Assembly: GCA_052055015.1 (NCBI GenBank)
Contig: JBQJIT010000087.1
Origin: Malassezia furfur
Lineage: Eukaryota
Length of the DNA stretch: 32,118 nucleotides
Direction: 5' to 3' (one strand)
Shown: positions 1 to 31,770 of the stretch, piece by piece
Layout: each line of letters begins with the position of its first letter
Numbering within the stretch: the stretch's first letter is position 1
Position numbers and translations under genes: made by a program
The notes under the pieces: model-generated
What the model was told of the DNA's origin: nothing
The model's input: the letters and a program-made list of their open reading frames with translations, nothing else
Database searches by the model: none

Positions 1-352
1 TCGAGGCCATGCGTCTTCAGCTGGTTCTGGAAGACTTTGAGGAGGCATTCCTGCTAGTCAACATCACGCACCATCAGCTCGTGCCGAAACACGAGGTGCT
101 CACCCCCGACGAAAAGGCCGAGCTCCTCCAGCGCTAGTAAGTTTCTTGGGCGGGCGCCATGCTGACCACCAGCCGTCTGAAGGAATCGCAGCTCCCACGC
201 ATCCAACAGTCGGATCCCGTCGCGCGCTACTTTGGCCTTACCCGCGGGCAGGTTGTCAAAATCACTCGGCGTACGTCGGCACCGCATGCCCCAGCTAACC
301 TCCAGCATCCGAAACAAGTGGGCGCTATTGCTCCTACCGGATCTGTATGTAA
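1..352 (+). CDS. RPB5: RNA polymerase I/II/III shared subunit RPABC1/Rpb5, 3' part (5' end outside window); introns 137-172 (36 nt) and 271-305 (35 nt)
   Basis: Spliced translation [83 protein letters not shown] is the Rpb5 C-terminal domain. Introns GTAAGT..GCTGAC..CAG and GTACGT..GCTAAC..CAG restore the frame. Stop TAA at 350-352. Confidence 0.96.
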
Positions 353-476
353 TGAATACCTTAGTCTAGGGATCACCCTCACGATCCCCGCGTAGCATTG
401 TATTGCGTCGCACGGAAACAAAAAAAAAAGCAGCGAGCGCATCTAGGGACGAGCCGGATGGTCGTGCGGCCCGGCC

Positions 477-487
477 AAAAAAAAAAA
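477..487 (-). terminator. Pol III oligo-dT terminator of tRNA-Asn copy 1
   Basis: T11 run on the minus strand directly after the tRNA 3' end; a second T-run lies at 420-429. Confidence 0.8.
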
Positions 488-586
488 CGACCCATGCTGG
501 AATCGAACCAGCGACCTTAGAGTTTTGTAGTCGTACACACGACCAGTATTAACAGCTCCACGTGCTAACCACTGTACCAATGGGTC
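488..586 (-). tRNA. tRNA-Asn(GTT) with a 26-nt intron after position 37 (copy 1)
   Basis: The reverse complement folds as GACCCAT/ATGGGTC acceptor stem, D-loop AGTGGTTA, anticodon arm TGGAG-CTGTTA[intron]A-CTCTA, T-arm GCTGG-TTCGATT-CCAGC and discriminator G; 73 nt after intron removal. Confidence 0.95.
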
Positions 587-1941: not shown

Positions 1942-3894
1942 ATGAGCGGCCGCGGACGGGGCGCCTACTACAAGCAAAAGTATGGACGCGGTGGGAACCG
2001 CGGTGCCGGTGGACCAGGTCGGAACGAGCAAAATGTTTCGCACTCGGGCCCGGAGCTGAAGCGATCGCGGACCGCGGTGCTTGGCGATGCGTCTGACCTC
2101 GAGGCATGGCTCCGACGGCACGACAACCGTCCCTACCCTGCCTACCACGACATCGAAGGGACATGGACGTTTCCCGGATTCACATTTACGCTGGATCATG
2201 CTCAGGCTGACCCGTATGCTGCGCCGAGCAAAGCGCATGTGCGCATCCCTCACGCAACGGCCAAGTTTCCTGCTTCGCTGTACACCTCGCGCATCCGCAA
2301 AATTGCGCTAGCGGACTATGTGTTGCGTGCATTGTACGACATGTGTGTCACAAAGCGGTACAACCAGCACCTTTCCGGAGGCGGATGGTCGGGCGGCAAA
2401 GGCGGCCAGCTCGAGGTGGACCGCCCCGGACAGCAGGTGCTGGAGCGCACCGCCGTGCTAGTCGACGACGAGGGGATCGAGGTGCGTTTCCTCGTGGGTC
2501 TTCCTGCGCGTGGACGCAGCATTATGGGTACCTTTGCGGCGACTGTATGTACGTATGAGGCGCATTGATGCAGTGTGTGAGCATGTCTCTGCGCTGGTCG
2601 CTGCCGTGTACTATGCGCACCATGATGCAACGCATCTGGCGGCGCATGTGAACGCCGTTGAGGACCAGGAAGCGCTGCGCGCCATGCTACCCGCTCACGG
2701 GCTCGTCGGATTTGTGCCGAATGGTGCGGTGCTGGCGCGTGAAAGCGGCGCATCAGACCGCCCGATGACGAGTCCGCCGGCGGTGCGCTTTGAGAGCCCC
2801 GAGTCGCTGCAGGTTACGCTAGAGCTGCCGAACCGCGGTGCGATTACCGGGATGGGGATCCAGAAGCAGGCCGTGTACGTGTGTCTAGGCGGTGGTTTCC
2901 ACGGCAAGTCGACATTCCTTGCAGCGCTGGCGCGCGGTCCGTACAATCACGTCCCGGACGACGGGCGTGCGTTTGTGAGCCTCGTCCCGTCGGCGGTGAG
3001 TGTGCGGTCCGAGGATGGGCGCCCGGTGCGTTCGGTAGACATTTCGCCGTTCATTGCAAACCTGCCTGATGGCAGCGACACAAGGTGTGTTATGTGCTAA
3101 CCGGCAGTGCGTTTACGACGAGCAACGCGTCGGGGAGCACATCGTGTGCCGCCGGGTTCATGGAGGCGCTCGAACTGGGAACGGACGTGGTGATTCTGGA
3201 CGAGGACACCACCGCTTCCAATTTTTTGGTGCGCGACGCTGCGATGCAGGCGCTTGTGCCAAATGAGCCGATCACGCCGCTTGCGGTGCGTGCGCGCGAC
3301 GTGGTGGAGCACACGGGCCTAACGATGGTGCTGGTGTGTGGCTCGTCGAGCGCGTTTTTGTCGGCGGCGGACGTGGTGGTGCAGATGGATGCGTACCGCA
3401 TGCTCGACGTCACGGCGCGGGCGAGCGAGGTCGCGCAGGGCGTGGCGGCGTGTGCGCCGCCGCGCGGGGCGTCGGTGTTTGGCGGCGCACGCGCAGAGCG
3501 TGCCGTGGGGCTTGCATCGCTCGCGGCGCACGGCAAAGTGGCGACGCGCGGCGCGTTCCAGGTACAGTGGGGCGACGAGACACTCGACCTGCACGCCGTG
3601 CCGCAGCTGGTCACGCCGAGCCAGACGCGGGCGATCGAGGCGGTGCTGCGGCACTGGGCGCACGGGCGGCTCGCGCCCGGCGCCGGGCGTGTGCCGCTGC
3701 GGGCGCTGGTGGATGCCCTCGAGGCGCATATGGACAAACATGGGGTGGATGTGCTACAAGACTATGGGCGCCTGGATGGGTTCCTCGCGCGTCCACGGCG
3801 CGTGGATGTGGGTGCAGCGGGTATGTACACGCAACTCACGCCAGTGAATCGACTTCGGCAGGCGCAGTGGGCACAGCTCGGCGCCGACGCGTAG
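1942..3894 (+). CDS. ABC-class ATPase of the 'ABC_ATPase' / trypanosome MRB1590-like family with RGG-rich N-terminus; introns 2549-2573 (25 nt), 3085-3107 (23 nt), 3821-3844 (24 nt, in frame)
   Basis: Family motifs: DHAQADPYAAPS, PGQQVLERTAV, LPARGRSI, VEDQEALR, GFVPNGAVLARESGASDRP, Walker A GGGFHGKST, RSEDGR, DISPFI, NASGSTS, Walker B LDEDT and C-terminal LARPRRVDVGAAVNRLR after splicing. Two GT-AG introns join the three ORF-track pieces. Confidence 0.88.
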
Positions 3895-3938
3895 CAGCGC
3901 CGGCCGCGGCGAGCAGAATTAAGGTAGATTTTGGTGCC

Positions 3939-6900
3939 TTAGCGATTCGGTGAGTCGTAAGGGGTGTCGAAGCGGAGCGCACCGTACGAACGGTTGCGGG
4001 CGTGGGTAGTACGCCCGTCGCTTACCGCCGAGGACGCCGCCTCTGGGGTGGTGGGGTCGAGGGGCACGGGGAAGTCGTGGTCGCCGCCAGGCAGGATGCT
4101 GCCCATGTCCATGGAGCCGCGCTGCTTGGCCACGTCGTCGCCGAGCGGGTCCTGCTCGTTGAGCGAGGCGATCGAGTGGTTCGGGATGCTCAAGAACGGC
4201 CCACGTGTGCGGGGGCGCAGCGGGTTGGCGTTTTCGTCCCAGCCGCGCTGAAGCATGTCCTCCAAATCGTTTTCCGAGAGCATTGACGAAAGGCGGTTCG
4301 TCTGCAGCATCGACATGGGCCGCGTGCTGTCGAGCAGCTCCGGCGGGAGCTGGTTCTCGTCGTAGCCGCCGATCTGGTCGCCCCAGCGGTCCTCGTCGAC
4401 ATCGGTCGAGATGGTGGCGGCGTCGTCGCGGTCGACGGCGACTGTCGGCGGCACCGAAGCCGGCGCGAGGCGGCCGTCTTCGGGCGCAAGGCCCGCGTCG
4501 TTGTAGAAGCCCTCGCCAAACTGGTTCTGGAGCTCCTGGCGGCGCCGCTCGTCGCGGCGCAGCTTGCGGATGCGCGAGCGCTCCCAGTCTTCCCATTGGC
4601 GCTGCGGCACGGCCTTGAGCGAGTCGTGGATCTCTTCGTCGACCGTCGCGGCGCTCTCGCCCTTGATCTCGCCCATGACCTTGCGTGTCTCGCCCCAGGA
4701 GAAGTCGTCAAAGTGCCAGAAGGAGTAGGCCGGCAGGATCAGATTCCACACGGGCAGGAAGATGAGGTAGATGATCAGCCAGCCCACAAACGAAGCCTTG
4801 AGCTGCGACAGGGTGATCACCACACCGGGCAGCACCAGCACAGCGATCAGCATCGTGATGGGAATCGCCGTCGCAAAGTCCTTGGGCGGGTTCACAATGG
4901 ACAGCACAATCAGCGTGTAAGTGAGCGAGATGGCGACCGGCAGCACGAGCGTGCCAATGAGGTCCATGAGCACGACAAATTGCATCGAGAAGCAAAACGT
5001 GCCACACAGGTCACGCACCAACACCAGCTCCATCAGGTTGTGCACGGTCGAGTTGATCCAGCGACGGCGCTGCGAGAGGAGCATACGGAAGGTGTGGGGC
5101 ACCTCGGTGTGGCACACCGCCTGCGGCACAAACACCATCTTACGGTGGGGGAAGGTGCGCAGCAGCATCGTGCTCAAAAAGCGGTCCTCGCCGAGCAATA
5201 GCAGATTCTTTTGGTGCAACGTCGTGACGATCGTCTGGCTGTACTCGCGCAGCACCTCGGGCTTGATCACGACTGGAATCCAGTCGTCGTCGTTCGCCTT
5301 GCGCGCCTTGACGCGGTAGATGCTAAAGCACCCCGGCAGACACGTCACACCACCAAACACACTCTCAAACGCCTTGACCTGGTGGTGCGAAATGAAGTAC
5401 TCAAACACCTGGATCATCGTGACCCAGCTCTGGGCCTTGTTCTCGATCCGCGTCTCACCACACGCGCCCATGATGCGGCTGTCGTTCATCATCGCGTCAC
5501 TCAAATGACGCAGCGCCGGCGGCTCGACCTTGGTGTCGGCGTCGACCATCAGCACCAGTTCAAAGAAATCGGGCGTGACGCCCATGAGTGCGTGTACTTT
5601 GCGGAAAAGGTCATAGTCCAGCGGCGTCATGGGGTCGTCGTACGTAACCCGCTGCAAAAAGTTGAGCAGGACCATCTGCGAGTCGCGCTTGCCACGGTTG
5701 CCGGGCTTCTTATCGTTCGCCTCGCTCGGCGTGCCGCACTTGGCCACAACGACCATGGGCACGGGTTCTCCGCCAGAGGGATCGATGTAGTGCCCGGCGT
5801 AGACAAGCGCCATGTTATGCGCCTTGGTGCCCGAGGCAATCGAGCCGTAGCTCATCGGCATCGGCGTGCCGAAACGCGCGTCGGGGCTCATCAGGCTCAC
5901 ACACACGTCCGGGGTACTGATCGTCTCGCCAAAGCCTGTCACCATACCGTCCGCCACGACAAACAACAGCTGCCGGTTCGCGGGGTAATGCGTTTTGGCG
6001 AGCGACGAGAGCGTCGCCGAGATGCCCTCGACGCCCTCCGAGTAGCACGTCACAAGGCACACCACGTACGGGTTGTTGCCAATGTCGCGCTGCGTCATGC
6101 TCTGCGGCAAATGCAGCGGTGCACCTGCATCCTTGCGTGCGGCGGTAGCGGCGACGAGCGGCGGCGCAATCGTCTTGTTCGCCCACGGCGCGACACCGCC
6201 CGACGAGGCATCCGCGGGGAGCACTTGGTGCGACAGGCGCTTGTTGCGCCGCGCCGCCTCGGTGTCCTCCTTCGCTGGGCGGCGCAGCAGCGCACGCGAC
6301 CCGGCAAAGTGGAACCAGAGCGCCATCGAGGTGCGAGCGAGCACGATGCCGAGAATCACGATCAGCGAGATGTACAGCACGATCTGCGAAATAAAACACC
6401 CCGTAGACAGGTAGTTGATGCGCCCGGCAATGTATTTGTCCTTGAGGCACTGCATCGCGTGCCGCGTCTCGGCGGTGTTGGTAAAGAGGCGCGTCGCGTC
6501 GGGGCCCTGGTGTGCGGCCTGCGCAAAGTGCATGCGGATCGCTTCATCCACCACGTCGCCTTCGATCGGATTGGGGTTCAGGTCGAGGTAGGGCGCCATG
6601 TTGAGCACCGTGCCGTCGAGCGTCATGAGGTTAGTGCCGTTCGACACCTCGTCCCAATCGAAGCCAAGCATGAGGTTCACGGGCTCAATGTTGAGAGTCT
6701 GCGCAATGTTGGGCGACAGCTGGTCCATGCACGGCGCGCGGTGGCCACGCAAGTTGATACACTCAAACTGCGTCGCATACACGCCCGTCTGGCCCAGGCA
6801 CGACGGCACCGAGCTGGCCGCGCGGCTCAAGTACGGCGTGAGATCCATACCAGGCTCCGTCTTCATACGTTGGTAGAAACCTTCGTCATTGAAGCGCGGG

Positions 6901-7424
6901 CTATCGCCGCGGTATACCTGGCCCTCGATCGTGTACATGGCGCCGGCCGATTTGAGCGGCTGGAAAATCTCCTGCGCCGACTTGGGACACAGGCTGCGCT
7001 GCAGGCCGACAGTGATGTATGCGATGATGCCACTCAGCAGCATGGCGAGCAACACAAGCGCCACCTTTTCGCGCCACGCCTGGCGCACCACGGAACTGTG
7101 CATGCCACATGCCGCCAGCACCGAGGGCGGCGCCCAGAAGGTGACGACGAGCGCGGTGTACTTCCACCAACTGCGCAGTGGGTGGCGCGACTTGCTGTTC
7201 TCGCCGAACGGGTCACCCGGCGCGCCGTCTGGATTGAGCAGCGGCGTGAGCGGATGACCGCGTTCTGGGCGCGACAAGGTATGCGCGCGAGCGATGCGCG
7301 AGGGGCGCCGCAGCGGGGGAGGGTGGTCTTCATCGAGTGAGATGGTGGTATCGTCGTTCCCCGCTCCAGGCCGCCGGATAAACGACCGGGCCGTGGAGCG
7401 GTGTCGACCGAGTTGCGCAACCAT
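3939..7424 (-). CDS. Class IV chitin synthase (Chs3-like), apparently intronless
   Basis: WREKVAL N-terminal motif, CLVTCYSEG, KPGNRGKRDSQ, LMVDADT, CLPGCFS, LLGEDRFL, SQRRRWINST, WHFDDFSWGETR; no myosin motor domain. The ORF-track start at 7454 is GTG; the first in-frame ATG is at 7424. Confidence 0.93.
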   Translation of the reverse strand: MVAQLGRHRSTARSFIRRPGAGNDDTTISLDEDHPPPLRRPSRIARAHTLSRPERGHPLTPLLNPDGAPGDPFGENSKSRHPLRSWWKYTALVVTFWAPPSVLAACGMHSSVVRQAWREKVALVLLAMLLSGIIAYITVGLQRSLCPKSAQEIFQPLKSAGAMYTIEGQVYRGDSPRFNDEGFYQRMKTEPGMDLTPYLSRAASSVPSCLGQTGVYATQFECINLRGHRAPCMDQLSPNIAQTLNIEPVNLMLGFDWDEVSNGTNLMTLDGTVLNMAPYLDLNPNPIEGDVVDEAIRMHFAQAAHQGPDATRLFTNTAETRHAMQCLKDKYIAGRINYLSTGCFISQIVLYISLIVILGIVLARTSMALWFHFAGSRALLRRPAKEDTEAARRNKRLSHQVLPADASSGGVAPWANKTIAPPLVAATAARKDAGAPLHLPQSMTQRDIGNNPYVVCLVTCYSEGVEGISATLSSLAKTHYPANRQLLFVVADGMVTGFGETISTPDVCVSLMSPDARFGTPMPMSYGSIASGTKAHNMALVYAGHYIDPSGGEPVPMVVVAKCGTPSEANDKKPGNRGKRDSQMVLLNFLQRVTYDDPMTPLDYDLFRKVHALMGVTPDFFELVLMVDADTKVEPPALRHLSDAMMNDSRIMGACGETRIENKAQSWVTMIQVFEYFISHHQVKAFESVFGGVTCLPGCFSIYRVKARKANDDDWIPVVIKPEVLREYSQTIVTTLHQKNLLLLGEDRFLSTMLLRTFPHRKMVFVPQAVCHTEVPHTFRMLLSQRRRWINSTVHNLMELVLVRDLCGTFCFSMQFVVLMDLIGTLVLPVAISLTYTLIVLSIVNPPKDFATAIPITMLIAVLVLPGVVITLSQLKASFVGWLIIYLIFLPVWNLILPAYSFWHFDDFSWGETRKVMGEIKGESAATVDEEIHDSLKAVPQRQWEDWERSRIRKLRRDERRRQELQNQFGEGFYNDAGLAPEDGRLAPASVPPTVAVDRDDAATISTDVDEDRWGDQIGGYDENQLPPELLDSTRPMSMLQTNRLSSMLSENDLEDMLQRGWDENANPLRPRTRGPFLSIPNHSIASLNEQDPLGDDVAKQRGSMDMGSILPGGDHDFPVPLDPTTPEAASSAVSDGRTTHARNRSYGALRFDTPYDSPNR

Positions 7425-7660: not shown

Positions 7661-9281
7661 ATGGACTCCCTCGCGGTGCCGGCGCGTGCGGTCGTCGCCG
7701 TCGGCATGGGCGAGTCATGCACGACCACGACCCAGTACGACGCCGCTGCGGCGCACCGGGACATCCAGCAGCGCGACCGACTCGCGCACGACGTCTACCA
7801 TTCCATCCTCCAGACAGGGCGCGGCGACTGGATTGATCTGATGAACTGCGCACCGCTCGCAAGCCAGTACCACCTGAGCACGTACAGCACGTTCAAGTTC
7901 GGGTTCGGAGGTACGCCACCGATGCACGCACTGACCGCCAGGCGCTCCGTACGCCTACCTGCCCATGTCGCTGCAGCAGCCACTGCTCACAGAGACCATC
8001 CTCTCGCGCCAACGCGAGATCGAGCAACAGGCCTGGTGTTGGCGCCTGCACGCGACCGGCCCAGAGGCCGCCGAGGTCGACGCCGCGGCCGACGCCGTGG
8101 CCGACGCCGCAGCCGAGGCTTCGGCGCCCGACGCCACTTGCGCCAACGGTGCGCCGCCCGCGCCCGACGCACTCCCGCACGATACCCCGCCGCTGCTCCG
8201 CAAGGCGATGCGAGACGCGATCCAGTTGGCATGCATGGACGGCGAACAGCCTTTGCAGGAACCAGCGCCGTGCACCATCAAGACGAGCAACTCGCATCCG
8301 ATCCAGGTGAGCCCCATTCTGCCGCCGAGCATGCTGGATGCTCTCTCGGCTCAGGTGCTTGCGCACCTCCCGCCCGAGTATGCGGAATGCGCGAGCGCCA
8401 CCGACCCCGCGCGCGCCTGTGGCTACGTCCACCGCGGCCAGCGTATCGAGCCGGGCGAGTTTGCTGCGCACCTCTTGCACGCGCTGGAGGACCCCGAGGC
8501 GCATCTTACGGAGCAGGTCCGCGGCGAGCAGCTCATCCGCCTCCCGCCGAGTGTCGCACTCGACGAGATCGCGCGCGAGGCACCTCCGGGGTGCAAGGAC
8601 TGCCCCTCGACGCACCAGCCGGTCGAAGCGGGGCGCCTCGGCAACATGATCCTCTCGTCGTGCCCGGGCAAAAAAGTCCGGCTGAATGGTCCCGAGCGCG
8701 GGCGCGGCAGCGTATGCCGCGACCTGAAAATGGACCTCGCGCGCTACCGCGCGATGGGCGTGCGCGCGATCGTGTGCTGCCTCGACGACGAGGAGCTCAA
8801 GCTGCTTGGGTCTCCGTGCGCCGAGTACGTCGAGGAGGTGGCCTCGCTCGGCCTCGACTTGGTGCGTCTGCCGATCGCCGAGGGCTTTGCGCCGACGGAT
8901 TTGGTCAAGTTTGACATCATGATGACCGCGCTCATCCTCACCTACACGCTACGTGGCGCCTCAATTCTCGTGCACTGTCGCGGCGGTGTCGGCCGCGCGG
9001 GCCTCGTCGCGGCGGTGTGGGTGTTCAAGATGGGCTTTGTGTCGCCGCCGTCGCGCGCGCCGCCACCCGTGGCGTCGCTTGCCGACGCGATGCACGCGGC
9101 GCAGCGCGACTCGGAGGATGTGCTGCCGACCGTGCTGAAGCTCATCGAGGTTGTGCGCCGCCGCCGGAGCCTGCGGGCGATCGAAACGGCGGAGCAGGCA
9201 CGGTTCTTGATGGAGTATGTACGGTTCGTCCACCGCCAGGAGCACGCGCGTCGCTGCTTCCAGCGGTGCTGCAAGGTATAG
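7661..9281 (+). CDS. CDKN3-like cysteine-based (PTP/dual-specificity) phosphatase; intron 7911-7941 (31 nt)
   Basis: GNMILSSCPGKKVRL, CRDLKMDL, CCLDDEEL, catalytic HCRGGVGRAG and RAIETAEQ. Intron GTACGC..ACTGAC..CAG joins the upstream exon (LASQYHLSTYSTFKFGFGG) in frame to APYAYLPMSLQQP. Confidence 0.85.
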
Positions 9282-9282
9282 G

Positions 9283-10729
9283 CTAGGCAGACACATTTTC
9301 TTCCCACGCAATCGCGGCAAAGCTCAGCTGCCGTCAGGTTTGGCGTACGTACCAGCACCAGCAGGCCGCCGACCACGTTCTGCAGGCGCAGCGACGACGG
9401 ATCGTGCACCATACCGCCCAACGCCGCCATGGGGATCGTGAGCGAGAGACCAATCGTGGTGAAGAGTGGTGACGACTTGAGCATCGCCAGAAGATAGGCA
9501 AAGTCGCTGCGTCAGGATCTCGCACGTACCTCACGACGGTGATCGCCATGTTGACCACCACACCGAGCCACATGTTCGCGTCAGACGGCAGCGCGAGCGG
9601 CTCGATGCCCAGCCAGTCCAGCACCAGGCCCACGGGCCAGAACGCCACGAGGTTGAACAGGCCCACAAACCCGAAAAAGAGCGGCATCGAGATCCGGTCC
9701 TCGGACCCGATCCGCACCTTGAGCAGCGTTACGTACACTGCGTAGCCTGCGCATGTCAGTCTCGCCAAATACGCACACAGTGCCGACAAAATCGCTAGCA
9801 TATCGCCCAGCAACGGATTTGGTGCAGCCCCCGCAGACGCCGATGGCGTGCCGTGGTCCGACCACGTCACGAGTGCGACGCCCAGGAAACTGAGCACCAC
9901 CGACACCACTTTGCCCGGCGCAAACGTGTCGGTGCCGACCATGCTTCCGAGAAGCAGTGTAAAAAACCCGCTCGATGCACCGAGCGTCGTGCCACTCGCA
10001 ACGCTCGTGTAGCCCAGCGCCGCGACAAACGACCAGTTTGCTGCAAACCACACAACCGCGAACTGCATCGCCAGGATGCCCGTCTCGACGATCGACAGGG
10101 GCGGTAGATCGGAGGCAGGCACCATGCATACACTGTGCTCTGATACTCCCGCATCGTCGTCCGAGCCGTACGACGACGACACTGAATCGGCCATGAGCTC
10201 CTCGCGCTCCTCGAGCGCACGCACCGTAAAGCTACGGCCACGCGACAGGCCGCGCCGCGCCGGCCGCTTGTGCGGCGCAGGGCCAAGGTCAATGCACATA
10301 TTCAAGTTGCTGCGTGGTCGTCGTCCATCGATCGACGAGGGTCGCGGCGGCGAAGGGTCGATGCCGAGCGCGCCGCTCGGCGCGTGCGGCGCCGGCTCGT
10401 CGAGATGCCCAGCCGCCGCGATCGCGGGGTCGACAGGGTACATCGGCGGCAGGCGGAACCCAAGGCGCTCGTACCATGGCATGCGTCTGCCATCCGTAGG
10501 GACGCGCAGATCGGCACCAGAGATCCACAGACCCACGAATGGGACAAGGTAGGTGATGAACGACGCGGTGCTCAAATATGTTACCGCAAATGGCTTATTG
10601 TAGCCGTGTGTGCTGCGTCAATCACACCACGTACAGCACAGCACTCGCAAGAAAATTGGATGCGGTCCATAGCACGTCAACCAGCAGCACCAGCCCCGCG
10701 CCGACCGCGTACCGATGCGCGTGCGCCAT
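9283..10729 (-). CDS. DMT/EamA-superfamily transporter, SLC35F5 / yeast YML018C-Thi74-like; introns 10613-10634 (22), 9747-9776 (30, in frame), 9507-9529 (23), 9328-9352 (25)
   Basis: The spliced product has LLVDVLWTASNFL, YNKPFAVTYLSTASF, WFAANW..AALGYTSVASGTTL.ASSGFFTL, LSALCYAVYVTLLK, FFGFVGLFN and SDFAYLLAMLKSSPLFTTIGLSLTIP. It ends LSFAAIAWEENVSA* (TAG at 9283-9285). Confidence 0.88.
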
Positions 10730-10787: not shown

Positions 10788-12628
10788 ATGGCCAGTGGAA
10801 CGGCGGCGCCTGCGGACGACGCGCACGCGTCGCTCGGGCTATGTGTCGGCAGCGGCGAAGAGACGCGCGCGCGGTCCGTGTTTGAGATGCCGCCCGATGC
10901 CGACGATGGGTGGGTGTGGTGCCGTGCGCGCGACCCCGAGGGTATGCACCGCATGTTTGCGCACATTGTGCACTATGTACGCGACGTTGAGCTCGGCGCA
11001 GTTGAGCCCAACGTGGTTGGTGACGACCGCACGCGCGTGCTGAGCGATCCGCTGGAGGAGTGCCCTACGCGCGAGGCGAACCCGGAGTACTACATTCGCG
11101 TATGTTCGCACTTAGACTCACCCAGATTGCACGGCCCACCTCGCTGCAGGCCATCACACATCGGATCGTCCATTGCGAGTATGCACAGCCGGCATTGTTT
11201 GAGCAAGACATGCTTCAGCTCTTTTCCAATGCGCGAACGTGGTATGGGATAGGCACGCCAGGATACAAGGAGATGGTGACGCTCCAGCGGCTCTACCAGC
11301 AGCTCACTCCGTCCAAGGCGAGTATGTACGACGGCGCAAACACCAAGCATGTCAAGGCGCGCTCAAACGACATTGATCTTGTGGACCAACGCCGCGCGCG
11401 TGCCAGTGCCGTCGACTTCTTTTCGTCCAGCGCATACGGGCCCGGCAATGAGCCACACACGCTGCACGAGCCACACACGCTGCTCGACGCCGCGTGGTTC
11501 AAGGGCCGCATGTACCGTACCGGCGACTGGGTGCACCTCATGAACCCCGTTGACCCATCACGCCCGATCGTTGCGCAAATCTTCCGCGTGTACAAGCGTC
11601 GCGACGTTCCAGGCACGTTTTTGACAGCCAATTGGTACTATCGGCCCGAGCAGACATCGCACGGTGCAGCACGGGTCTTTTATGAGAATGAGGTGCTCAA
11701 GACGGGCATTTTTGGTGACCATGTCTTGGAAGACATTGTAGAGGAGATTCTCGTGCTCTTCCACACCAAGTACGCTCGTGCACGGCCCAAGGCCGCGTAT
11801 AGCGCGCCCCAGGTGCCCACCTATATCGTCGAGTCTAAGTACGACGTGGCCCGGGCCGAGTTCCACAAAATTCAGAGCTGGGCCAGCTGTGTACCGACCG
11901 AGGTCCGTGAAAAGCGCACACCCATGGACGTGTTTGCCGTGCCGAGCTCCATGCCGCCGCGACAGCCGTCGCTGCTCACGACCAATGCCTATGCACCTGG
12001 ATTTGGACAGTTAATGGAGCACGCACGGGTCGACGACGAGCCGTACGAATATCGCGACCTGTTCGACACCGGCACGAAGGAGGAGGCTCAGGCGACGCCC
12101 GCACCACCGTCGATGCCCGCACCACGGCCGCCGACCGCGGGCCTATCGGCTGCGCATCCCGACCGCTTGCGTGCGTATGCGGCATTTCACATGGTGGCGA
12201 GCGACATTGCGCGCCGCACGAGTCCGGCGTCCTACGAAGCGATCCAAGCGGCACTCCTTGCCGATCCCGACATGTCGGCTGGCGCGCTCACGGCCCTGAG
12301 CGTGCGGCACAATATTCCCGACAGTCTGCTTGCACGCCTGCGCGATGCGGCGCGCAGTGCCGGCGTCCTGGAAAACGCCAAGACCGGCACCGCACCACGC
12401 GTGCCGAGCCTCGCGCCGGTGCTGGCGGCGCACCGCGCCGAAGCGCAGTTTACGCCACTGCCCCACGGCACCGCCGAGCTGTTCCGTCGCGACGCCGAGG
12501 GTCGGCTGCTGTGGTATGCGGCGCCGCCCCTAGATGGATGGCACGCGTCGACCGCGGTGCAGGATGGCACGACGCACCTGCCGTTGCCGAGCCTGGAATA
12601 CCTGTACGCGACGGTCCGCAAGACCTAG
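10788..12628 (+). CDS. Bromodomain + BAH-domain chromatin protein, RSC1/RSC2-like; intron 11100-11125 (26 nt); start codon uncertain
   Basis: Bromodomain-like segment PTREANPEYYIR|IARPTSLQAI..FEQDMLQLFSNARTWY; BAH domain YRTGDWVHLMNPVDPSRPIVAQIFR..WYYRPEQT..FYENEVLKT; C-terminal ELFRRDAEGRLLWYAAPP and LPSLEYL resemble the Rsc1/2 CT motifs. Confidence 0.82.
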
Positions 12629-12650
12629 ACTGTAGAATACTGCCAAGCGA

Positions 12651-13723
12651 CTATGGGTTCTTGCTTGCCTCGTCCTGTGCGGCGGCCGCCTGCCGTACCG
12701 GTGCAAAGTACGGGTGGCGCTGCGCCTCGAGGGCCGTGAGGCGCTCCTGGTGGTCGTAGCGCAGCAGGTGGTCCAAGAAGTCGAGCGCTTCGTCGGACAC
12801 GTACCGCTCGTTCTCGGGCGTGACAAAGCGCGGCCACGGCTTGCGCTGGTACCGGCCCAGTATGCCGTCATAGTGCGAGTCGAGCTCAATGTTGTACTTT
12901 TCCAAATAGGCAAATAGCCCATCGGTGCCCAGCACCTTGCAGATCTTCACAAGCTGGTCGTAGTTGTCGTGGCCGTGGAAGAACGGCTCCTTGCGGAAGA
13001 TCATGCTGGCGAACATGCAGCCCAGGCTCCACATATCCAGCGAGTAGTCGTATTCCTGGAAATCCACCAGCAGCTCGGGACCCTTGAAGTAACGCGAGGC
13101 GACGCGCACGTTGTATTCGGTATACGGGTGGTAAAACTCCGCCAGGCCCCAGTCAATCAGACGCAGCTTGCGCTTTTCGTGGTCAATCATGACGTTGTGG
13201 GGCTTCACGTCGCGGTGCATGATGCCGCGCGAATGACAAAAGTCAAGCGCCTTGAGCAGTTCAAAGATGTAGTAGCGCACGTCGAAGTCGGTAAAGCGTG
13301 GGTACAGCACCTTGAAATCGGTGTTGTTCACATACTCCGTAATGATCGACGGGGTTTTCGACTGCGGGTCGCGCACCACATCAATCAGCTGCACCACGTT
13401 GGGACCGCCACGAAGGTTTTGCAGGATTTTGATTTCACGCTTGATCTTCTTCTTCTTGACCGGCTTCAGCACCTTAATGATGCACTTGTCGTAGCCAGGA
13501 GAGGCCACATTAATTCCTTCGAACACTTCCGAATACTTGCCGCGCCCCACCTTTTGCAGAATCTCATAGTGGTCCTGCGTTCCCCTGCGGTTAGTCGGTC
13601 GCTTACCATTGCAACTGGAGATTGTCTGCATCAGATCAATTCGTACGTACCATAATCCCACCATGACCGTCCTCGCTTTTCGTTCGCGTCTGCGTACACC
13701 CGCGCCACGCTCAGTCCGGACAT
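12651..13723 (-). CDS. CKA1: Casein kinase II catalytic alpha subunit; introns 13626-13650 (25 nt) and 13585-13606 (22 nt)
   Basis: Spliced N-terminus [56 protein letters not shown]2-specific [35 protein letters not shown] and [11 protein letters not shown]. Confidence 0.97.
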
Positions 13724-17823: not shown

Positions 17824-18482
17824 ATGGATGCCTCCACGGCATCCAATGCAGAGCATGCACGGCCATTGCCTCTGACGAGCAATGCAGATACATCGACTAT
17901 ATCCTCAGAGACAAGTCTGTTTGCTGGAGACAATGTTTCCCAATCCATCTTGTCCCAACCGAAGGCGAGCGTCGATACGCTTGTAAGCGCGCAACCCGGG
18001 AAAACTGGTGTGCCGCCGACTGATCCTTTTCCCATCCGGTTTGTCTTAGAGACTCATCTGGCAGTATACCCCGTCAATTCAATGGGAAAGAAACAATTCA
18101 ATTTGACGATGTGGTTCCTCCGGCCCTTGTTGGCAGAGTAGGTCCTACTCCGTACTAAGTACAGGTTGATGAGGAACATTACAGGAGTCATGTCAAAGCA
18201 ATGAATGGTATCCTGGAATCCTCTGCTAGTCCGTGCTATGGACTTCTCGACAATGTGCTCACCAATATGACATTCCAGCTTTGGCCCCTGGTCGTGGGTA
18301 CCCACCATCAAAGAGTAGGTGAGCGTCTAACTCAGTGCATGGAGCAATTCTATCGCGAGCTGGACACGTTCCAGCACTCGGTGTTCACACCAGCGGCTTT
18401 GTACGTGGCGCCACCTCGCGATACCGCCTTTCTATATCTGGAAGTGCACAATGCGCGCTGCTCAGGCGACCAAGTTCCTTAG
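17824..18482 (+). CDS. ERF4: Erf4/Shr5/GOLGA7-family Ras palmitoyltransferase accessory subunit; introns 18039-18064 (26), 18138-18164 (27), 18315-18335 (21, in frame)
   Basis: Spliced PIR|IPRQFNGKETIQFDDVVPPALVGR|VDEEHYRSHVKAMNGILESSASPCYGLLDNVLTNMTFQLWPLVVGTHHQR|CMEQFYRELDTFQHSVFTPAALYVAPPRDTAFLYLEV follows the Erf4 domain pattern (RIPR..QF..P..L.GR..N.IL..LDN.L..TH..PR..AFL.LE). Recognised by eye; divergent. Confidence 0.75.
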
Positions 18483-18522: not shown

Positions 18523-18621
18523 GACCCATTGGTACAGTGGTTAGCACGTGGAGCTGTTAATACTGGTCGTGTGTACGACTACAAAACTCTAAGGTCGCTG
18601 GTTCGATTCCAGCATGGGTCG
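18523..18621 (+). tRNA. tRNA-Asn(GTT) with 26-nt intron (copy 2, identical to copy 1)
   Basis: GACCCATTGGTACAGTGGTTAGCACGTGGAGCTGTTA-intron-ACTCTAAGGTCGCTGGTTCGATTCCAGCATGGGTCG; cloverleaf with A and B boxes. Confidence 0.95.
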
Positions 18622-18642: not shown

Positions 18643-18773
18643 GACCGCATCCCTGTACATGCGGCACCACTTTTGGTCGCGATAAGGTTCGGCGCAACAG
18701 CGCAGAGGCACAATCTAGAGGGTACACAGCTACACAAGCACAGAGCTCCATCTACATTCACTTGTGCTGAGGG

Positions 18774-19702
18774 TTAGTCACTTCTTGTGTCACGTACCCG
18801 TCGGTATTCTGCGACAAGCATCGCGTGATCGCGCTCGTACGGCTCCAGCGTGAGCTGTTCCCTGGGGCGGAACGAGCTCTTCTTCAGCTTGTTGACCTCC
18901 TCGGCAAACACGGCCTCAGGCTGCGCGGTTGAGTCAATGCAGCTGGCCTTGATCGAAATCACAACAGCGCCGCCGTTCTTAAGGAAGTACTCGGCGTTGT
19001 ACGCAACAATACGGGCCTGGTCGGGCTGCGCAACGTCCGCAAAGATGACATCGACCGTGCCGACGAGCATACGGTATTTCGCGGGGTGGCGCGCATCCTC
19101 GATAATCGGGATCACATTCGTGCGCTTTTTGGCCATGTTGATCAGATCACGGCCTGACCGGTGCGAGAACTCGACCGCGTATACAATCCCCTCAGGACCC
19201 ACAATGTCGGCGACGTGGCTCACACTGGTACCGCTCGCGGCACCCAGGTAGAGCACCTTGGCGCCCGGCTTGATGTGAATGTTGTCCAGACCACCGAGAA
19301 CACCAGCCGCAAGCTTGGAGCGGAACGGGTTCCACACACGGTATTCCACCTTGGCCACCGCCGGGTTCTCGTCCGTGCTCGGTGCCGCGTTAGGGTTCTC
19401 CACCGAGATACGCTTCTCGCCATAGACCGACTCGCCGGGCACCAGGTTCTTGGTCACCAAAAGGTGCTCCTTGCCCTCGGCCACGAACACACCGTCGTGG
19501 CGGTGCGGCTTGACCATGACATTCGAGCCACCGCCCTTGCCACCACGGGCACCGCCACGGCCACCGCCGCGACCGCCGCCGAAGCCACCGCGGCCGCCGC
19601 CGCGTCCACCACGGCCCGGGGGTCCACCACGTCCACGACCCGGAGGTCCGCCACGTCCACGATCACCTGGGGTCAGCCAGGGCCACACATACCAAATGCC
19701 AT
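18774..19702 (-). CDS. NOP1: Fibrillarin, rRNA 2'-O-methyltransferase; intron 19667-19692 (26 nt)
   Basis: MAFG|DRGRGG GAR domain, [62 protein letters not shown] and [13 protein letters not shown]. Confidence 0.97.
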
Positions 19703-19848: not shown

Positions 19849-21309
19849 ATGCCGCGCGAGATTATTACGCTCCAGGCAGGCCAATGCGGCAACCAGATTG
19901 GCTCACAGTTCTGGGAGTACCTTTGCCGTGAGCACGGCATCTCCCAGGATGGCACACTCGAGGATTTTGCGACTGAGGGCCAAGCGGGTGATCGGAAAGA
20001 CGTCTTCTTCTACCAGGCGGACGACGAGCACTATATCCCGCGCGCTATTCTCGTGGACTTGGAACCTAGGGTATGTCGCGCAGCATTCTCACTGTGCAGG
20101 TTATCAATAATATCATGGCAGGGCCATACCGAAGCCTGTACAACCCGGAAAACATTTACAGCAGCAAGGACGGCGGCGGTGCCGGCAACAACTGGGCACA
20201 AGGCTACGCGGCCGGCGAGAAGATTTCCGACGAGCTGATCGAGATGGTAGACCGTGAGGCAGATGGGAGCGACAGTCTTGGCGTACGTGGCTCGAGCTCA
20301 CACAGGGATTCTTCTTGACACACTCGATTGCCGGCGGTACCGGCTCCGGTCTGGGCAGTTTCTTGCTGGAGCGTCTGAACGACGCCTTCCCCAAGAAGCA
20401 GATCCAGACGTACAGTGTTTTCCCCAACTCGGAGGAGACGTCTGATGTGGTCGTTCAGCCATACAACTCGGTACTCACGCTCAAGCGCCTTGTGAACAAT
20501 GCCGACAGCGTTGTGGTACTGGACAATGCTGCGCTCAGTCGCATTGCAAGCGACCGTCTGCACATGCAGAACCCAAGCTACAGCCAGACGAACCAGCTGG
20601 TAAGCACGGTGATGGGGGCGTCCACGACGACGCTGCGGTACCCCGGCTATATGAACAACGACTTGGTCGGTATTCTTGCGTCGTTGATCCCTGCCCCACG
20701 GCTGCACTTCCTCATGACTTCGTACACGCCGTTTACCTCGGACAATGTGGACCGCGGCAAGGCAACGATGAAGACGACGGTGCTGGATGTGATGCGGCGA
20801 CTGCTCCAGCCCAAGAACCGGATGGTGAGCATCTCTGGACAGAGCAAGACAAGCTGCTACATGTCCGTGCTCAACATCATCCAGGGAGAGGTCGACCCGC
20901 GCGATGTGCACAAGAGTCTGCTGCGTATCCGAGAGCGGCACCTGGCGAGCTTTGTGCCGTGGGGGCCTGCGAGCATTCAAGTGGCCTTGTCGCGGCGCAG
21001 TCCCTACGTGGAGAGTTCGCACCGCGTGAGCGGGCTAATGCTCGCCAACCATACCGGCATTGCAAGCATGTTCAAGCGTACGGCGGACCAGTACGACAAG
21101 CTGCGCAAGCGCAACGCGTTCATGGAGATGTACAAGCGCGAGCCCATGTTTCAAGGGGGCGACTTGTCCGAATTGTGCGTCCTACAACTACTGACCACAG
21201 CGACGAAGCGCGCGAGACGCTGGCAGAGCTCATGTCCGAGTATCGCGCCGCCGAACGACCCGACTGTACGTTGCGTGCTTACCCAGACATTTCCGGCCCC
21301 GACGCGTAG
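19849..21309 (+). CDS. TUB4: Gamma-tubulin; introns 20071-20099 (29), 20283-20305 (23), 21175-21200 (26), 21266-21286 (21, in frame)
   Basis: [78 protein letters not shown] and SGLMLANHT; the spliced C-terminus [23 protein letters not shown] matches the gamma-tubulin tail. Confidence 0.97.
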
Positions 21310-28229: not shown

Positions 28230-28305
28230 CGACGTTCATACGCTAGATATAGCATACAGCCCTTAAGATCCCTGTCCCCTCCACCTGCCTCCACCTGCCT
28301 CTGCC

Positions 28306-30153
28306 ATGGCCCCGACGCAGGAAGACGCCGCGCCGGCGACGCCGCCGGCCGCTGCCGCATCGGCGCCAAACACTGGCGTGCCCGCCGCGCCACCCGCACA
28401 GACAGGCGCGCCGGACGCGTCCAAGGGTCTGATCGCGTCGATGATGGAGAACAACCCCTACTTCTCCGCCGGCTTCGGCCTGATGCTCTTTGGCGGCGTG
28501 CTGGCCTACTCGCGCAGCCTCGTGCAGTTTGGCGCGAATGCCGCCAAGCACCGCATGCTCGTCTCGCTCGAAATCCCGTCCAAAGACCGCGCGCACCCGT
28601 GGTTCCTGCACTGGATGGGCGCGCAGGCACAGGCACAGGCGCTCCGCCGCAAGGCGTACGATGGCCATCCGCCGCGCGAGTCGCTCCTCGAGTTCCTCGG
28701 CGTGCGCCACGCGGCGCCTTCGCATGCGCCCGACGCCGATGCACGCGCGCGCGACGCCCACTCAGACCCCCTGCGCGCCGGCAACGAGGTGGTGTCGCCC
28801 GTGCGCATCATCTCGCGCGACTTGGCCGTCGACACGCAATACACCGAGCCGACGACCGGCGGACGCGACGACGACGAGCGCGGCAAGGCGACGTTTTCGC
28901 TGGTCCCCGGCCCGGGCACGCACTACTTCCGCTACCGGGGCGTGTGGATCCGTCTGCACCGCGAGCGCAACGGCAAGCTCGTCGACCTGTCGACGGGGGC
29001 GCCGTGGGAGACGGTGACGCTGACGACGCTTGCATCGTACTCGCATCTATTTACGCAGCTCCTCGCAGAGGCGCGCCAGCTCGCACTCGCCTCGACGCAA
29101 GGCAAGACGGTCATCTTCACGAGCTGGGGCGCCGAGTGGCGCCCGTTTGGGCACCCGCGCCGCGTGCGTGAGCTGGACAGTGTGGTGCTCGACACGGACA
29201 AGAAGGACGAGCTGGTGGGCGACGTGCGCCGCTTTTTGAGCCGCGGGCCGTGGTATGCGAAGCGCGGCATACCGTACCGCCGCGGGTATCTGCTGCACGG
29301 CGCGCCGGGCTCAGGCAAGACGTCGTTCATCACCGCGCTCGCGGGCAGCCTCGACTTCAACATCTGCCTGCTGAATCTTGCTGAGCGCGGCATGACCGAC
29401 GACAAGCTCAACCACCTGCTCTCGAACGCGCCGGAGCGCAGCATTTTGTTGTTGGAGGACGTGGACGCGGCATTTGCTGGGCGGCAGCACCACGCGCCCG
29501 AGCGCCATGCAGACGGCTACCAGCCGAGCGTCACGTTCTCGGGGCTGCTCAATGCGCTCGACGGCGTTGCCTCGGGAGAGTCGCGCATCATCTTTATGAC
29601 GACCAACCACCTCGAGCGCCTCGACCCTGCGCTGATCCGACCAGGGCGCGTCGACATGATCTGTGAGCTCGGCGACGCGCGGCCGAGCCAGGTGCGCGAG
29701 CTGCTCGTGCGCTTCTACCAGGCCGACCGGCTCGAGGCGCGTCTCGACGACGCACGCCGCGCGCGCGGCTACGACCCCGCCGAGTTTGCGCACCCGCTCA
29801 ACCAGAGCGCGCCGGACGCGGGCACCGACTACTACCGGCACGCGCTCGAAGAGACCACCGCCGAGCTCCACCGCGCCGCCGACCAGCTCGTGCGCGAGGT
29901 GGAGCAGGCGACGCAGCGCCGCCGTGCAGCGCTGCACCTCGATGCAGACGGCTACGCACCCGGCGAGGGCAAGGAGGTGCGCGCCGCCCGCTCGGGCTTC
30001 TGGCCCCGGCCCGCGGCCCGCGGCGGTGTAAGCATGGCTGAGCTGCAGGGCCTGTTTATCCGCTTCCCGGACGACCCGCACGCGGCGGTGCAGGCGTTTG
30101 CCGAGGAGAATGCCGCGCTCGCCGAGATGCTCGAGAACGCATCGCCTCCTTAG
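28306..30153 (+). CDS. BCS1: Mitochondrial AAA chaperone Bcs1 (complex III Rieske insertion)
   Basis: NPYFSAGFGL, LEIPSKD, LVPGPGTHYFRY, PWETVTLTTL, WGAEWRPFG.PR, RGIPYRRGYLLHGAPGSGKTS (Walker A), LLLEDVDAAF (Walker B), FMTTNH, LDPALIRPGRVD and SMAELQGLF. Confidence 0.96.
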   Translation: MAPTQEDAAPATPPAAAASAPNTGVPAAPPAQTGAPDASKGLIASMMENNPYFSAGFGLMLFGGVLAYSRSLVQFGANAAKHRMLVSLEIPSKDRAHPWFLHWMGAQAQAQALRRKAYDGHPPRESLLEFLGVRHAAPSHAPDADARARDAHSDPLRAGNEVVSPVRIISRDLAVDTQYTEPTTGGRDDDERGKATFSLVPGPGTHYFRYRGVWIRLHRERNGKLVDLSTGAPWETVTLTTLASYSHLFTQLLAEARQLALASTQGKTVIFTSWGAEWRPFGHPRRVRELDSVVLDTDKKDELVGDVRRFLSRGPWYAKRGIPYRRGYLLHGAPGSGKTSFITALAGSLDFNICLLNLAERGMTDDKLNHLLSNAPERSILLLEDVDAAFAGRQHHAPERHADGYQPSVTFSGLLNALDGVASGESRIIFMTTNHLERLDPALIRPGRVDMICELGDARPSQVRELLVRFYQADRLEARLDDARRARGYDPAEFAHPLNQSAPDAGTDYYRHALEETTAELHRAADQLVREVEQATQRRRAALHLDADGYAPGEGKEVRAARSGFWPRPAARGGVSMAELQGLFIRFPDDPHAAVQAFAEENAALAEMLENASPP

Positions 30154-31770
30154 GTGGAGACACGGTCGCCGAGCGCGTGCGCTGCCGCAAACGCGGCGAA
30201 CAAAACAAGCTGGCTGAGAGCGTCGACGAGCGACGTGACGTAGGGCATGCACGACATGTCCGGGTCGTAGTCAAAGTACCACAGCAGCAAGCACAGTGTA
30301 TATCCCAGCGCCAGTGCCACGCACACGAGCAGCATGCTCAGCGAGGTGAAGCACACGGCAAACTGCCAGCCGAACACGAGACTGCCCGTCGCCCACAAGA
30401 CAAACAGGTAGCTCACCTGCACCGCAATCGTGCTGGCCAGCAGCGCGAGCGGCATCTGCCAGCCGCACAATGGCACCAGCCAGCCGCGTGAGCCGGGCGC
30501 CGTGGGCGCCGCATCTGCGCGCGCATCGCCGTCCGCGTCGTGGATCGGCGCATACGTACCGAGCGCCGAGCGCGTCGGCGCCACGATGCGGCCCGTGTGC
30601 AGGGCAGACGACAGCGTGGACGACAAGATGGCTGCCGCGACGCCGGGGAGCCCACTCACCACCGGTGCGAGCAGCGCAAGGCCGTCGTACCTGTCGGCGT
30701 TGCGGTCGAGCAGCAGTCCTGCCACCGAGCTCACAACGGCGGCGACAATGAGCGGCACCCAGCCCTCGCCAAACAGCTCGCGCACGTACACGTTGCGCAG
30801 CGTCATAATCACCATCACGCAGCAGATCCCGATCAGCACCACAAACAGCACAAGCGAGAGCAGCGAGCCCTCGGTGGGGAACATGCCCGCAGCCAGCACG
30901 CCCAGGATGGTCAGCGTGACCAGGTCGCCGAGCGACCCGGCGATCGGTACGACGCTCTGGTCCGGGTCAATGCGGAAGCGCCGCGACCAAATCACTAGTG
31001 CGCACAAACACGTCCCCTGCGCCGCAGACGACAGCGACGCGGACATCATCGCGACCGCGACGATCATAAAAAATTCCAGGTAGCCGTTCCGCAGCCGAAG
31101 CGCACGGTTCACATTAGGTCGGTTGGGGTTGTGGATGCCGCGCGGCGCGAGCGCAGAGGCAGTTGCGTTCGACACAGCGGAGAAGGCTGTTGCGCTCGCA
31201 TCGGCACTTGGCGCGGCGGCCAGCGCCGCGGCGTTGTTGTTCCAGTCGTGGCCGAGCACGAACGACAATGCACCGGCGACGCATGCAATGATGAGCGCCT
31301 GTGCCTGAAGGAGTGCTAAGTTGCCGCGCACCAGTGTCTGGCGCGTACGCCGGCTGTCGAGCTCGCCCATATTGGACTGTGGGTAAGTGCACGCAACGTA
31401 CCGCTGTAGACATGCGGAGCGACAGATTCAGCTCCAGGTTACCCTTGAGGTTGAACATAATGGGCACCAGCACGAGAAACTTGTCCACCGCTTGGAACAC
31501 GTTCCAGTGCTGGAGTCAGCTACGTGCACGTACCGATACCCGGTCCAGCTCGCGGCCGGACAGCAGCAACCCCGCAGCGGCCAGCACCAGCATGGGAAGA
31601 GTTTGTAGCACGGCGCTCCCAAACGACCGCGGAAGCAGCTCCTTTTCTTGTTCCGACTGCGTGGGCTCGCTAGGGCCCGGGGGTATCGGCAGCACGGCCT
31701 GGGATGACATTGCGTCGTATTTGACGGCGTCATCGCCGTCCTCGACACCCTCTGCGGATGGTCGCTGCAT
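30150..31770 (-). CDS. SLC41/MgtE-family divalent cation transporter; introns 31510-31533 (24, in-frame stop) and 31377-31401 (25)
   Basis: SLC41 motifs LVPIMFNLKGNLELNLSLRMSTA|SNMGELD, GNLALLQAQA, IDPDQSVVPIAGSLGDLVTL, GWVPLIVAAVVSS.AGL.LD and YDPDMSCMPYVTSLVD (two MgtE-like halves). Confidence 0.85.

Follow-up and report, generated by a model that had tools for sequence, protein, structure and literature searches.

Ultra-short introns, with a mode near 25 nucleotides (nt) or lengths below 30 nt, have been described in ciliates, microsporidia, dicyemids and myxozoans (PMC5014332, PMC13644364). Those organisms lie outside Dikarya, unlike the yeast whose introns we describe. We analyzed a stretch of 32,118 nt from contig JBQJIT010000087.1 of assembly GCA_052055015.1 (Malassezia furfur), and by "the window" we mean this whole stretch. 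It holds 33 introns of 21-36 nt in about 19 protein-coding genes. These segments are almost certainly ordinary U2-type GT-AG introns of a Malassezia yeast that have shrunk to little more than their signals. Like the ultra-short introns of ciliates and the other groups, they are GT-AG introns and almost wholly signal.

Short introns have already been reported from several species of Malassezia. The curated annotation of M. sympodialis ATCC 42132, for which mappers were set to 10-2000 base pairs (bp), contains 5350 introns with a mean of 30 bp, 99% of them supported by RNA-seq (PMC5389616). (A supplementary figure in that paper has a length axis of 0-100 bp, but values could not be read from it; we found no intron median, mode or description of splice signals in the available parts of the paper.) Further values come from the annotations of M. 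restricta KCTC 27527 and M. arunalokei: the 2150 introns of M. restricta have a mean length of 37.2 and a median of 30 (PMC9241646), and in annotating this species the minimum intron length for the gene finder was set to 20 and 15 (PMC6473144). According to a review, the genes of Malassezia have "very short introns" (PMC7426719). For M. globosa, the average intron length from an older pipeline was 79 (PMC4634964). In a survey of fungal introns, M. sympodialis counts as intron-poor, and we found no discussion of intron length in the survey's available text (PMC8476143). In a 2026 paper about the shortest introns of animals, the groups named as falling outside a floor of about 30 bp are ciliates, Microsporidia and Dicyemida, and Malassezia is not mentioned in the available text (PMC13644364).

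The introns in the window are of the same order of size as those of M. sympodialis and come from the same genus-level group. Their mean (25.7 nt) and median (25 nt) are below the mean of 30 bp for M. sympodialis, but these values are from just 33 introns and from a different species. The window also differs from M. restricta in having 33 introns in about 19 protein-coding genes, versus about 0.5 introns per gene. The trait published for the genus, introns of about 30 nt or less that are common to relatives, is seen in the window and also in the two related species that we describe below (species A, with a median of 28.5 nt, and species B, with a median of 26 nt). Near-minimal intron architecture is the published norm for the genus and not a peculiarity of the window, and the size class was already known.

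This bears on an earlier sequence-only reading of the window, which had noted that Malassezia introns are known to be short but that a mode of about 21-25 nt is not typical of Dikarya. The size class is not novel, as it was already published for M. sympodialis and M. restricta and is also present in species A and B. The same reading had allowed that the observation would stand, but would not be novel, if such a distribution were already reported as normal for the species, and at the level of the genus this is the situation. (Our literature search found no printed distribution of intron lengths for M. furfur itself, but supplementary files may hold one.) In short, the finding is real, but it is not new: the size class is in print, and two relatives share it at these loci.

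The introns consist of little more than splice signals

The 33 introns sum to 848 nt. Three of them are 21 nt long, five are 22 nt, five are 23 nt, two are 24 nt, four are 25 nt, five are 26 nt and two are 27 nt; the remainder are 29, 30, 31 (twice), 35 and 36 (twice) nt. The sequence-only reading had counted 32 introns of 21-36 nt with a median of 25 nt. The sizes and the median are right, but the count is not, as one of the two 31-nt introns (7911-7941 and 18767-18797) was missed.

All 33 introns begin with GT and end with AG. Every donor fits GTNNGY: GTACGT occurs 13 times, GTATGT 6 times, GTGCGT 5 times, GTAGGT 3 times and GTACGC twice, and four other donors occur once each. Position +5 is always G and position +6 is always a pyrimidine (T in 30 introns, C in 3), in line with an extended donor consensus that could pair with U1 and U6. 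Position +3 is mostly A (26 introns), with G in 6 introns and T in the other. The acceptor is CAG in 32 introns and TAG in the other. The branch-like motifs are CTGAC (11), CTAAC (8), CTCAC (4), CTTAC (3), CTGAT (2) and CTCAT (2), with TTGAT, TTGAC and CTAAG seen once each; YTNAY fits 32 of the 33. The putative branch A is 5-9 nt before the 3' end in every intron. Counting from the 5' end, it is at position 16-29, and the shortest distance from the 5' end to the branch is 15 nt. The sequence-only reading had described the signals in the same way, both for the donors (GTNNGY, mostly GTACGT, GTGCGT or GTATGT) and for the branch sites (degenerate, close to the YAG, and with no pyrimidine tract).

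To illustrate how little else is present, a 21-nt intron comprises a 6-nt donor (GTNNGY), about 6 spacer bases, a 5-nt branch motif (similar to CTRAC), one more base, and the YAG. When we read the 33 intron sequences by eye, we saw no common core beyond these signals; a length of 21-36 nt leaves hardly any room for one. Nor do these look like minor (U12-type) introns, which would have the donor ATATCC or GTATCC and a TCCTTAAC-like branch. With G at +5 throughout, TCC at +4 to +6 occurs in no donor of the 33.

The signals of the window's introns are the same as those described for Cryptococcus neoformans, which has the donor GTNNGY, the branch CTRAY and the acceptor YAG. Introns in Cryptococcus are about 50-60 nt, or about twice as long. 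In the window, the spacers between the signals are nearly gone.

How might such introns be recognized? Exons in the window reach several hundred bases while the introns are around 25 nt, so the splice sites would probably be paired across the intron (intron definition). The 3' splice site would then be the first YAG at 5-9 nt after the branch. Because the branch A is so close to the acceptor, there is no room for a pyrimidine tract, and such a tract and its binding factor would contribute little.

This geometry, which is found in all 33 introns, might instead be taken as a sign that the spliceosome itself was modified for near-minimal introns, as the sequence-only reading proposed, with U2AF65/Mud2 lost or weakened, or with changes to SF1, SF3b, Slu7 or Prp18, in place of a standard fungal spliceosome that works on strong signals set close together. 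Among the papers listed by our literature search, none dealt with the splicing machinery of Malassezia yeasts. On the other hand, the signals are ordinary, and Cryptococcus has the same motifs in introns that are twice as long. The window also encodes a normal Lsm2. We consider a modified spliceosome to be possible but doubtful, and we prefer to view the segments as ordinary U2-type introns with most of the spacer removed.

Predicted splicing restores the reading frames

The introns are in 13 genes between positions 137 and 31533. As named from Pfam, these encode the C-terminal part of RPB5, an ABC-class ATPase, a phosphatase-like protein, an EamA/SLC35F transporter, a bromodomain/BAH protein, CK2 alpha, tryptophanyl-tRNA synthetase (TrpRS), Lsm2, Avl9, an Erf4-family protein, fibrillarin, gamma-tubulin, and an MgtE/SLC41-like protein. 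The sequence-only reading had proposed that the frame breaks in 13 genes are repaired by GT-AG introns, and indeed all 13 spliced models are open. Its further proposal, that the junctions rebuild conserved proteins, also fits the evidence: across the junctions, the positions in Pfam profiles and the residue numbers in solved chains are continuous. Each of the 33 introns has outside support from Pfam, solved structures, orthologous proteins or syntenic DNA. Judging from these alignments, removal of the segments restores conserved proteins residue for residue.

The introns fall into all three length classes (10, 11 and 12 introns have lengths of 3n, 3n+1 and 3n+2) and all three phases (15, 9 and 9 introns are in phases 0, 1 and 2). 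In Paramecium, there is a deficit of introns that are stop-free with a length of 3n; in the window, 10 of 33 introns have a length of 3n, which is too few to test for such a deficit. The 23 introns whose lengths are not multiples of three, together with the 5 of the 10 others that carry an in-frame stop, make 28 introns that must be removed to give the protein. The remaining five are in frame and free of stops: 3821-3844 in the ABC-class ATPase, 9747-9776 in the EamA/SLC35F transporter, 15543-15578 in Lsm2, 18315-18335 in the Erf4-family gene, and 21266-21286 in gamma-tubulin.

Introns at the same loci in two related species

We compared the window to syntenic DNA from metagenomes. A scan with one exon of Avl9 gave no match. 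A second scan, with an alignment of EamA orthologs as the query, gave 37 loci, of which six are syntenic with the window. These six loci are from two related species: species A (L001 and L002, with 49% G+C) and species B (L003-L006, with 51-52% G+C). Together they cover 29 of the 33 junctions. (The junctions outside this comparison are introns 3 and 4 of gamma-tubulin and introns 1 and 2 of the MgtE/SLC41-like gene.)

The comparison supports splicing in two ways. First, 17 junctions have no intron in one or both relatives, where the coding sequence continues with 0 extra bases and matches the spliced model without gaps. These are introns 1-3 of the ABC-class ATPase, the phosphatase-like intron, introns 2 and 3 of EamA/SLC35F, the bromodomain/BAH intron, both introns of CK2 alpha, the TrpRS intron, introns 1-3 of Lsm2, introns 3 and 4 of Avl9, and both introns of fibrillarin. 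Second, at 19 junctions (7 of which are also in the first group), at least one relative has an intron of its own at the same place. Species A has an intron at 10 of the 26 junctions that its loci cover (23-46 nt), and species B has one at 19 of 29 (18 of them of clear length, 24-34 nt). At 16 of the 19 shared places, the lengths differ between the species by a number that is not divisible by three, which would be tolerable only if the segment is removed from the message.

The relatives also bear on the five in-frame, stop-free segments. Some of these might not always be spliced, and might be retained or might act as alternative coding insertions of 7-12 residues. The reading frame would stay intact, and Lsm2 intron 3 also has a tandem acceptor, whose two forms (20 or 23 nt) differ by one codon. 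But all five segments carry the full donor, branch and acceptor signals; protein profiles and homologs treat them as insertions; and the relatives either lack them or have frame-breaking lengths at the same place (such as 25, 26 or 29 nt). We think it is quite improbable that any of the five is retained, even part of the time, and we treat all of them as introns.

To see how often the combined signals arise by chance, we searched both strands for a strict motif (GTRNGY, followed by YTNAY and a YAG, with 5-9 nt from the A of YTNAY to the YAG and 20-40 nt in all). The window has 37 matches, versus 8.3 +/- 3.05 (maximum 18) in 200 shuffles that preserve dinucleotides. The 37 matches comprise 31 of the listed introns, 5 alternative ends of listed introns, and 1 match that is antisense to an exon. 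The strict motif misses two listed introns, both in the Erf4-family gene: the one with the donor GTTTGT and the one with the branch CTAAG. A caveat is that the excess is partly built in, because the motif was derived from these same introns; the restriction to the sense strand and the repair of the reading frame are not built in. The idea that the frame breaks are assembly errors or pseudogene lesions, with GT-AG repairs by chance, draws on the facts that any frame break in GC-rich DNA has some GT...AG pair nearby and that a loose gene finder chained many false introns, but it has next to no chance of being right and is already contradicted by the three-part signal on the sense strand in 33 of 33 cases and its large excess over shuffles, by the essential and conserved nature of the genes with their junctions exact to the residue, and by the introns at the same places in independent assemblies of two related species.

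Several points weigh against our interpretation of all 33 segments as introns, or at least against some of the details. That the segments are excised from the transcript is something that we infer from DNA, and the branch points are motif calls, not mapped sites. Partial retention of the five in-frame, stop-free introns would leave the protein unbroken. The N-terminal junction of fibrillarin is in a region whose length differs between species, so the match there cannot be exact. The donor of gamma-tubulin intron 3 (21175-21200) was chosen by its consensus, and a 35-nt alternative with a non-consensus donor also keeps the frame. Finally, for exon 4 of gamma-tubulin, the sole hit is to residues 422-442 of chain 9g3x_g, with E = 0.66, which is weak. 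We still view the 33 segments as ordinary introns.

Junctions gene by gene

In RPB5 (+ strand), intron 1 (137-172; 36 nt, phase 2) separates positions 26 and 29 of Pfam's Rpb5_C, with a split codon and one residue between them, and its counterparts in the relatives are 46 and 28 nt long. Judging by Rpb5 chains of 210, 214 and 215 residues, 15 residues are still to come when exon 2 ends, and the model adds 15 residues after intron 2 (271-305; 35 nt, versus 43 and 34 nt in the relatives).

In the gene for the ABC-class ATPase (+), intron 1 (2549-2573; 25 nt) is absent from species A, which is uninterrupted with 0 extra nt, while species B has an intron of 25 nt. Both relatives are uninterrupted at intron 2 (3085-3107; 23 nt), where the match to ABC_ATPase from Pfam goes from position 150 to 153 with a split codon and one residue between. 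Both are also uninterrupted at intron 3 (3821-3844; 24 nt, in frame and stop-free). Reading through intron 3 would give exactly 8 extra residues relative to the MRB1590_C profile, and 39 of 40 homologs have a gap over these 8 residues. (These homologs are the first 40 by rank, among the hits of at least 500 residues, from 150 listed.) In the phosphatase-like gene (+), both relatives are uninterrupted at the single intron (7911-7941; 31 nt), with 0 extra nt and a gapless match across the junction.

The EamA/SLC35F transporter gene (-) has four introns, and annotated orthologous proteins are gapless across all four junctions. At intron 1 (10613-10634; 22 nt), each relative has an intron of 24 nt, with in-frame stops, at the corresponding site. 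Intron 2 (9747-9776; 30 nt, in frame and stop-free) and intron 3 (9507-9529; 23 nt) are both absent from species A, which is uninterrupted, and species B has an intron of 25 nt at each. At intron 4 (9328-9352; 25 nt), the relatives have introns of 28 and 26 nt. The 10 residues that would be encoded by intron 2 are missing from 11 of 13 aligned proteins. The two proteins that keep them are plain open reading frame (ORF) calls that go out of frame at intron 3, and one of these comes from the DNA of the window itself.

The bromodomain/BAH gene (+) has one intron (11100-11125; 26 nt), at which both relatives are uninterrupted with 0 extra nt; the downstream exon begins at position 33 of the Bromodomain profile. 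In CK2 alpha (-), intron 1 (13626-13650; 25 nt) and intron 2 (13585-13606; 22 nt) flank an internal exon of just 19 nt (13607-13625), and both relatives are uninterrupted at both introns. Relative to chain 6ise_B, exon 1 extends to residue 25 and exon 3 takes over at residue 33, and the five whole codons and two split codons of the tiny exon fill residues 26-32 exactly. Similarly, relative to chain 1r6t_A, exon 1 of TrpRS (-) ends at residue 140, the split codon is residue 141, and the first residue of exon 2 is 142. The TrpRS intron (14836-14862; 27 nt) has an in-frame stop, and both relatives are uninterrupted there.

Lsm2 (+) has four introns, and its first exon is the ATG alone (from 15210). 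Intron 1 (15213-15235; 23 nt) directly follows the ATG. Species A has the same N-terminal codons without interruption, species B has an intron of 26 nt after its ATG, and the spliced N-terminus aligns from residue 1-2 of solved Lsm2 chains. Both relatives are uninterrupted at intron 2 (15334-15355; 22 nt). Intron 3 (15417-15439; 23 nt) has the tandem acceptor CAGCAG, and using the alternative at 15436 would give an intron of 20 nt and a difference of one codon. We disfavored the 20-nt form because it adds a residue that is missing from the solved chains and from species A, whose uninterrupted sequence agrees with the 23-nt form (in species B, the intron is 30 nt long). Homology favors 23 nt, but both forms may be used. 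At intron 4 (15543-15578; 36 nt, in frame and stop-free), both relatives have introns of 29 nt at the same place. Overall, the exons correspond to residues 2-33, 35-54 and 55-88 of the solved chains, with a split codon at residue 34, and the spliced protein has 96 residues, versus 95-96 in the solved Lsm2 chains.

In Avl9 (-), intron 1 (17459-17479; 21 nt) contains an in-frame stop, and its counterparts in the relatives are 29 and 27 nt long; the exon after it begins at position 10 of the Avl9 profile. Intron 2 (17326-17347; 22 nt) corresponds to introns of 25 and 24 nt in the relatives. Both relatives are uninterrupted at intron 3 (17136-17157; 22 nt). At intron 4 (16504-16529; 26 nt), species A is uninterrupted and species B has an intron of 25 nt. 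The positions in Pfam's Avl9 profile go from 47 to 49, from 106 to 108, and from 306 to 308 at introns 2, 3 and 4, with one residue between each pair.

The coding sequence of the Erf4-family gene (+) runs from 17824. Intron 1 (18039-18064; 26 nt) has the donor GTTTGT, and its counterparts at this junction in the orthologous genes are 23 and 31 nt long. (We rejected a model with an intron of 67 nt, at 17983-18049, because the orthologous loci place the junction at 18039-18064.) Intron 2 (18138-18164; 27 nt) has an in-frame stop; the exon after it begins at position 29 of the Erf4 profile, and species A has an intron of 29 nt at the same place. In species B, the length of the equivalent intron is ambiguous. 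At that site (L004, around 2560-2630 on the - strand), removing the obvious 23-nt intron yields a stop codon, and the frame is kept only by an intron of 55 nt or by one of 19 nt with a non-consensus donor. Intron 3 (18315-18335; 21 nt) is in frame and stop-free, and the relatives have introns of 27 and 26 nt. Reading through it would give exactly 7 extra residues relative to the Erf4 profile.

The two introns of fibrillarin (-) are close to the ends of the protein. Intron 1 (19667-19692; 26 nt) comes after codon 3, and species B has the same first three residues and runs without interruption into the glycine-arginine region. Intron 2 (18767-18797; 31 nt) precedes the stop by two codons. The same C-terminal codons are continuous in species A, and species B has an intron of 29 nt there.

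In gamma-tubulin (+), intron 1 (20071-20099) is 29 nt long in the window and in species B, and intron 2 (20283-20305; 23 nt) corresponds to a 24-nt intron with stops in species B. The positions in Pfam's Tubulin profile go from 55 to 56 at intron 1 and from 108 (plus 2 residues) to 111 at intron 2. The related loci do not reach the junctions of intron 3 (21175-21200; 26 nt) or intron 4 (21266-21286; 21 nt, in frame and stop-free). In alignments to gamma-tubulin chains, the exons that flank intron 3 show one additional residue, which falls in a variable loop. At intron 4, the split codon and the residues that follow it presumably match the C-terminus of tubulin.

In the MgtE/SLC41-like gene (-), intron 1 (31510-31533; 24 nt) has an in-frame stop, which reading through would meet, and all five orthologous proteins that span the junction are gapless. 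At intron 2 (31377-31401; 25 nt), five of the six spanning proteins are gapless, and the sixth (a record from M. yamatoensis) retains 8 extra residues.

The host and the other genes of the window

The window is GC-rich (55-69%) and dense, as eukaryotic nuclear DNA. The top named matches for its proteins are from Malassezia: M. furfur CBS 14141 is 93% identical, and the proteins of other species of Malassezia are 45-70% identical. By this measure, the host belongs to Malassezia and its closest named relative is M. furfur.

To map the genes, we used a small gene finder of our own, with a codon model derived from the longest open frames. Gene models made with loose rules (which allowed long, weakly marked introns) were dropped because they chained neighboring genes together through antisense DNA. 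The final map used strict rules for introns, followed by curation by eye. Besides the 13 intron-bearing genes, it includes intronless open genes for a cytochrome-b5-reductase-like protein, a protein of 1161 residues (3939-7424), a channel (2344 codons) and a BCS1-like protein. (These four were named by reading their translations, without a family search.) We rejected a predicted 55-nt intron in the BCS1-like gene, as well as several candidate introns at the 5' end of the calcium-channel gene, because these genes are open without introns.

Convergent genes in the window nearly abut at their 3' ends (9281/9283, 30150-30153, 3894/3939 and 12628/12651). The ends of the phosphatase-like and EamA genes are 1 nt apart, and the coding sequences of the BCS1-like and MgtE-like genes overlap by 4 nt. 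With convergent ends almost superposed, the 3' untranslated regions must overlap in antisense.

The window also has two identical genes for tRNA-Asn(GTT), at 488-586 (-) and 18523-18621 (+). Both have an intron of 26 nt at the canonical position in the anticodon loop. They were detected by Rfam (49.8 bits each) and by ARAGORN with introns allowed, and were missed by ARAGORN with its default settings.

Errors in public annotations at tiny introns

At the tiny introns, public protein predictions for these genes are frequently in error (P0001-P0003, P0054 and P0061-P0064). Plain ORF calls read through the in-frame introns or run out of frame. The EamA record from M. furfur CBS 14141 is truncated: it lacks the N-terminus and 15 residues around one intron. 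The MgtE-like record from M. yamatoensis keeps the 8 residues of an in-frame intron. The sequence-only reading had warned that gene finders with larger minimum intron sizes would mis-annotate such genes, and these read-through, out-of-frame and truncated records agree with that warning. In these yeasts, many genes will come out broken or truncated from any pipeline whose minimum intron length is set higher than about 20 nt, and the same holds for prokaryote-style ORF callers.

Possible turnover of tiny introns, and implications

The same genes vary strongly in intron content among the window and the two relatives. Nine of the window's introns are missing from both relatives: introns 2 and 3 of the ABC-class ATPase, the phosphatase-like intron, the bromodomain/BAH intron, both introns of CK2 alpha, the TrpRS intron, intron 2 of Lsm2, and intron 3 of Avl9. 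This could reflect gain in the window's lineage or loss elsewhere. EamA is the one gene that we could compare to more distant fungal loci (L009-L035), and introns 2, 3 and 4 of the window's gene do not coincide with the intron found there. These loci, which may be paralogs, have an intron of about 50 nt in phase 0, located 20 nt upstream of the window's intron 3, and are uninterrupted at the sites of the window's introns 2 and 4. It is conceivable, though on balance rather unlikely, that tiny introns are being gained in the window's lineage, or at any rate that they come and go rapidly there.

With lengths of 21-26 nt and a branch that is 5-9 nt away from the acceptor, such introns are near the physical lower limit for the spliceosome. 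Because Malassezia is transformable and within Dikarya, it could be used to test what a standard fungal spliceosome needs. If the gain of tiny introns is real, then Malassezia would show how introns of 22-26 nt arise, and it would be a genetically tractable model, within Dikarya, for the splicing of minimal introns, one that the literature on ultra-short introns has overlooked.

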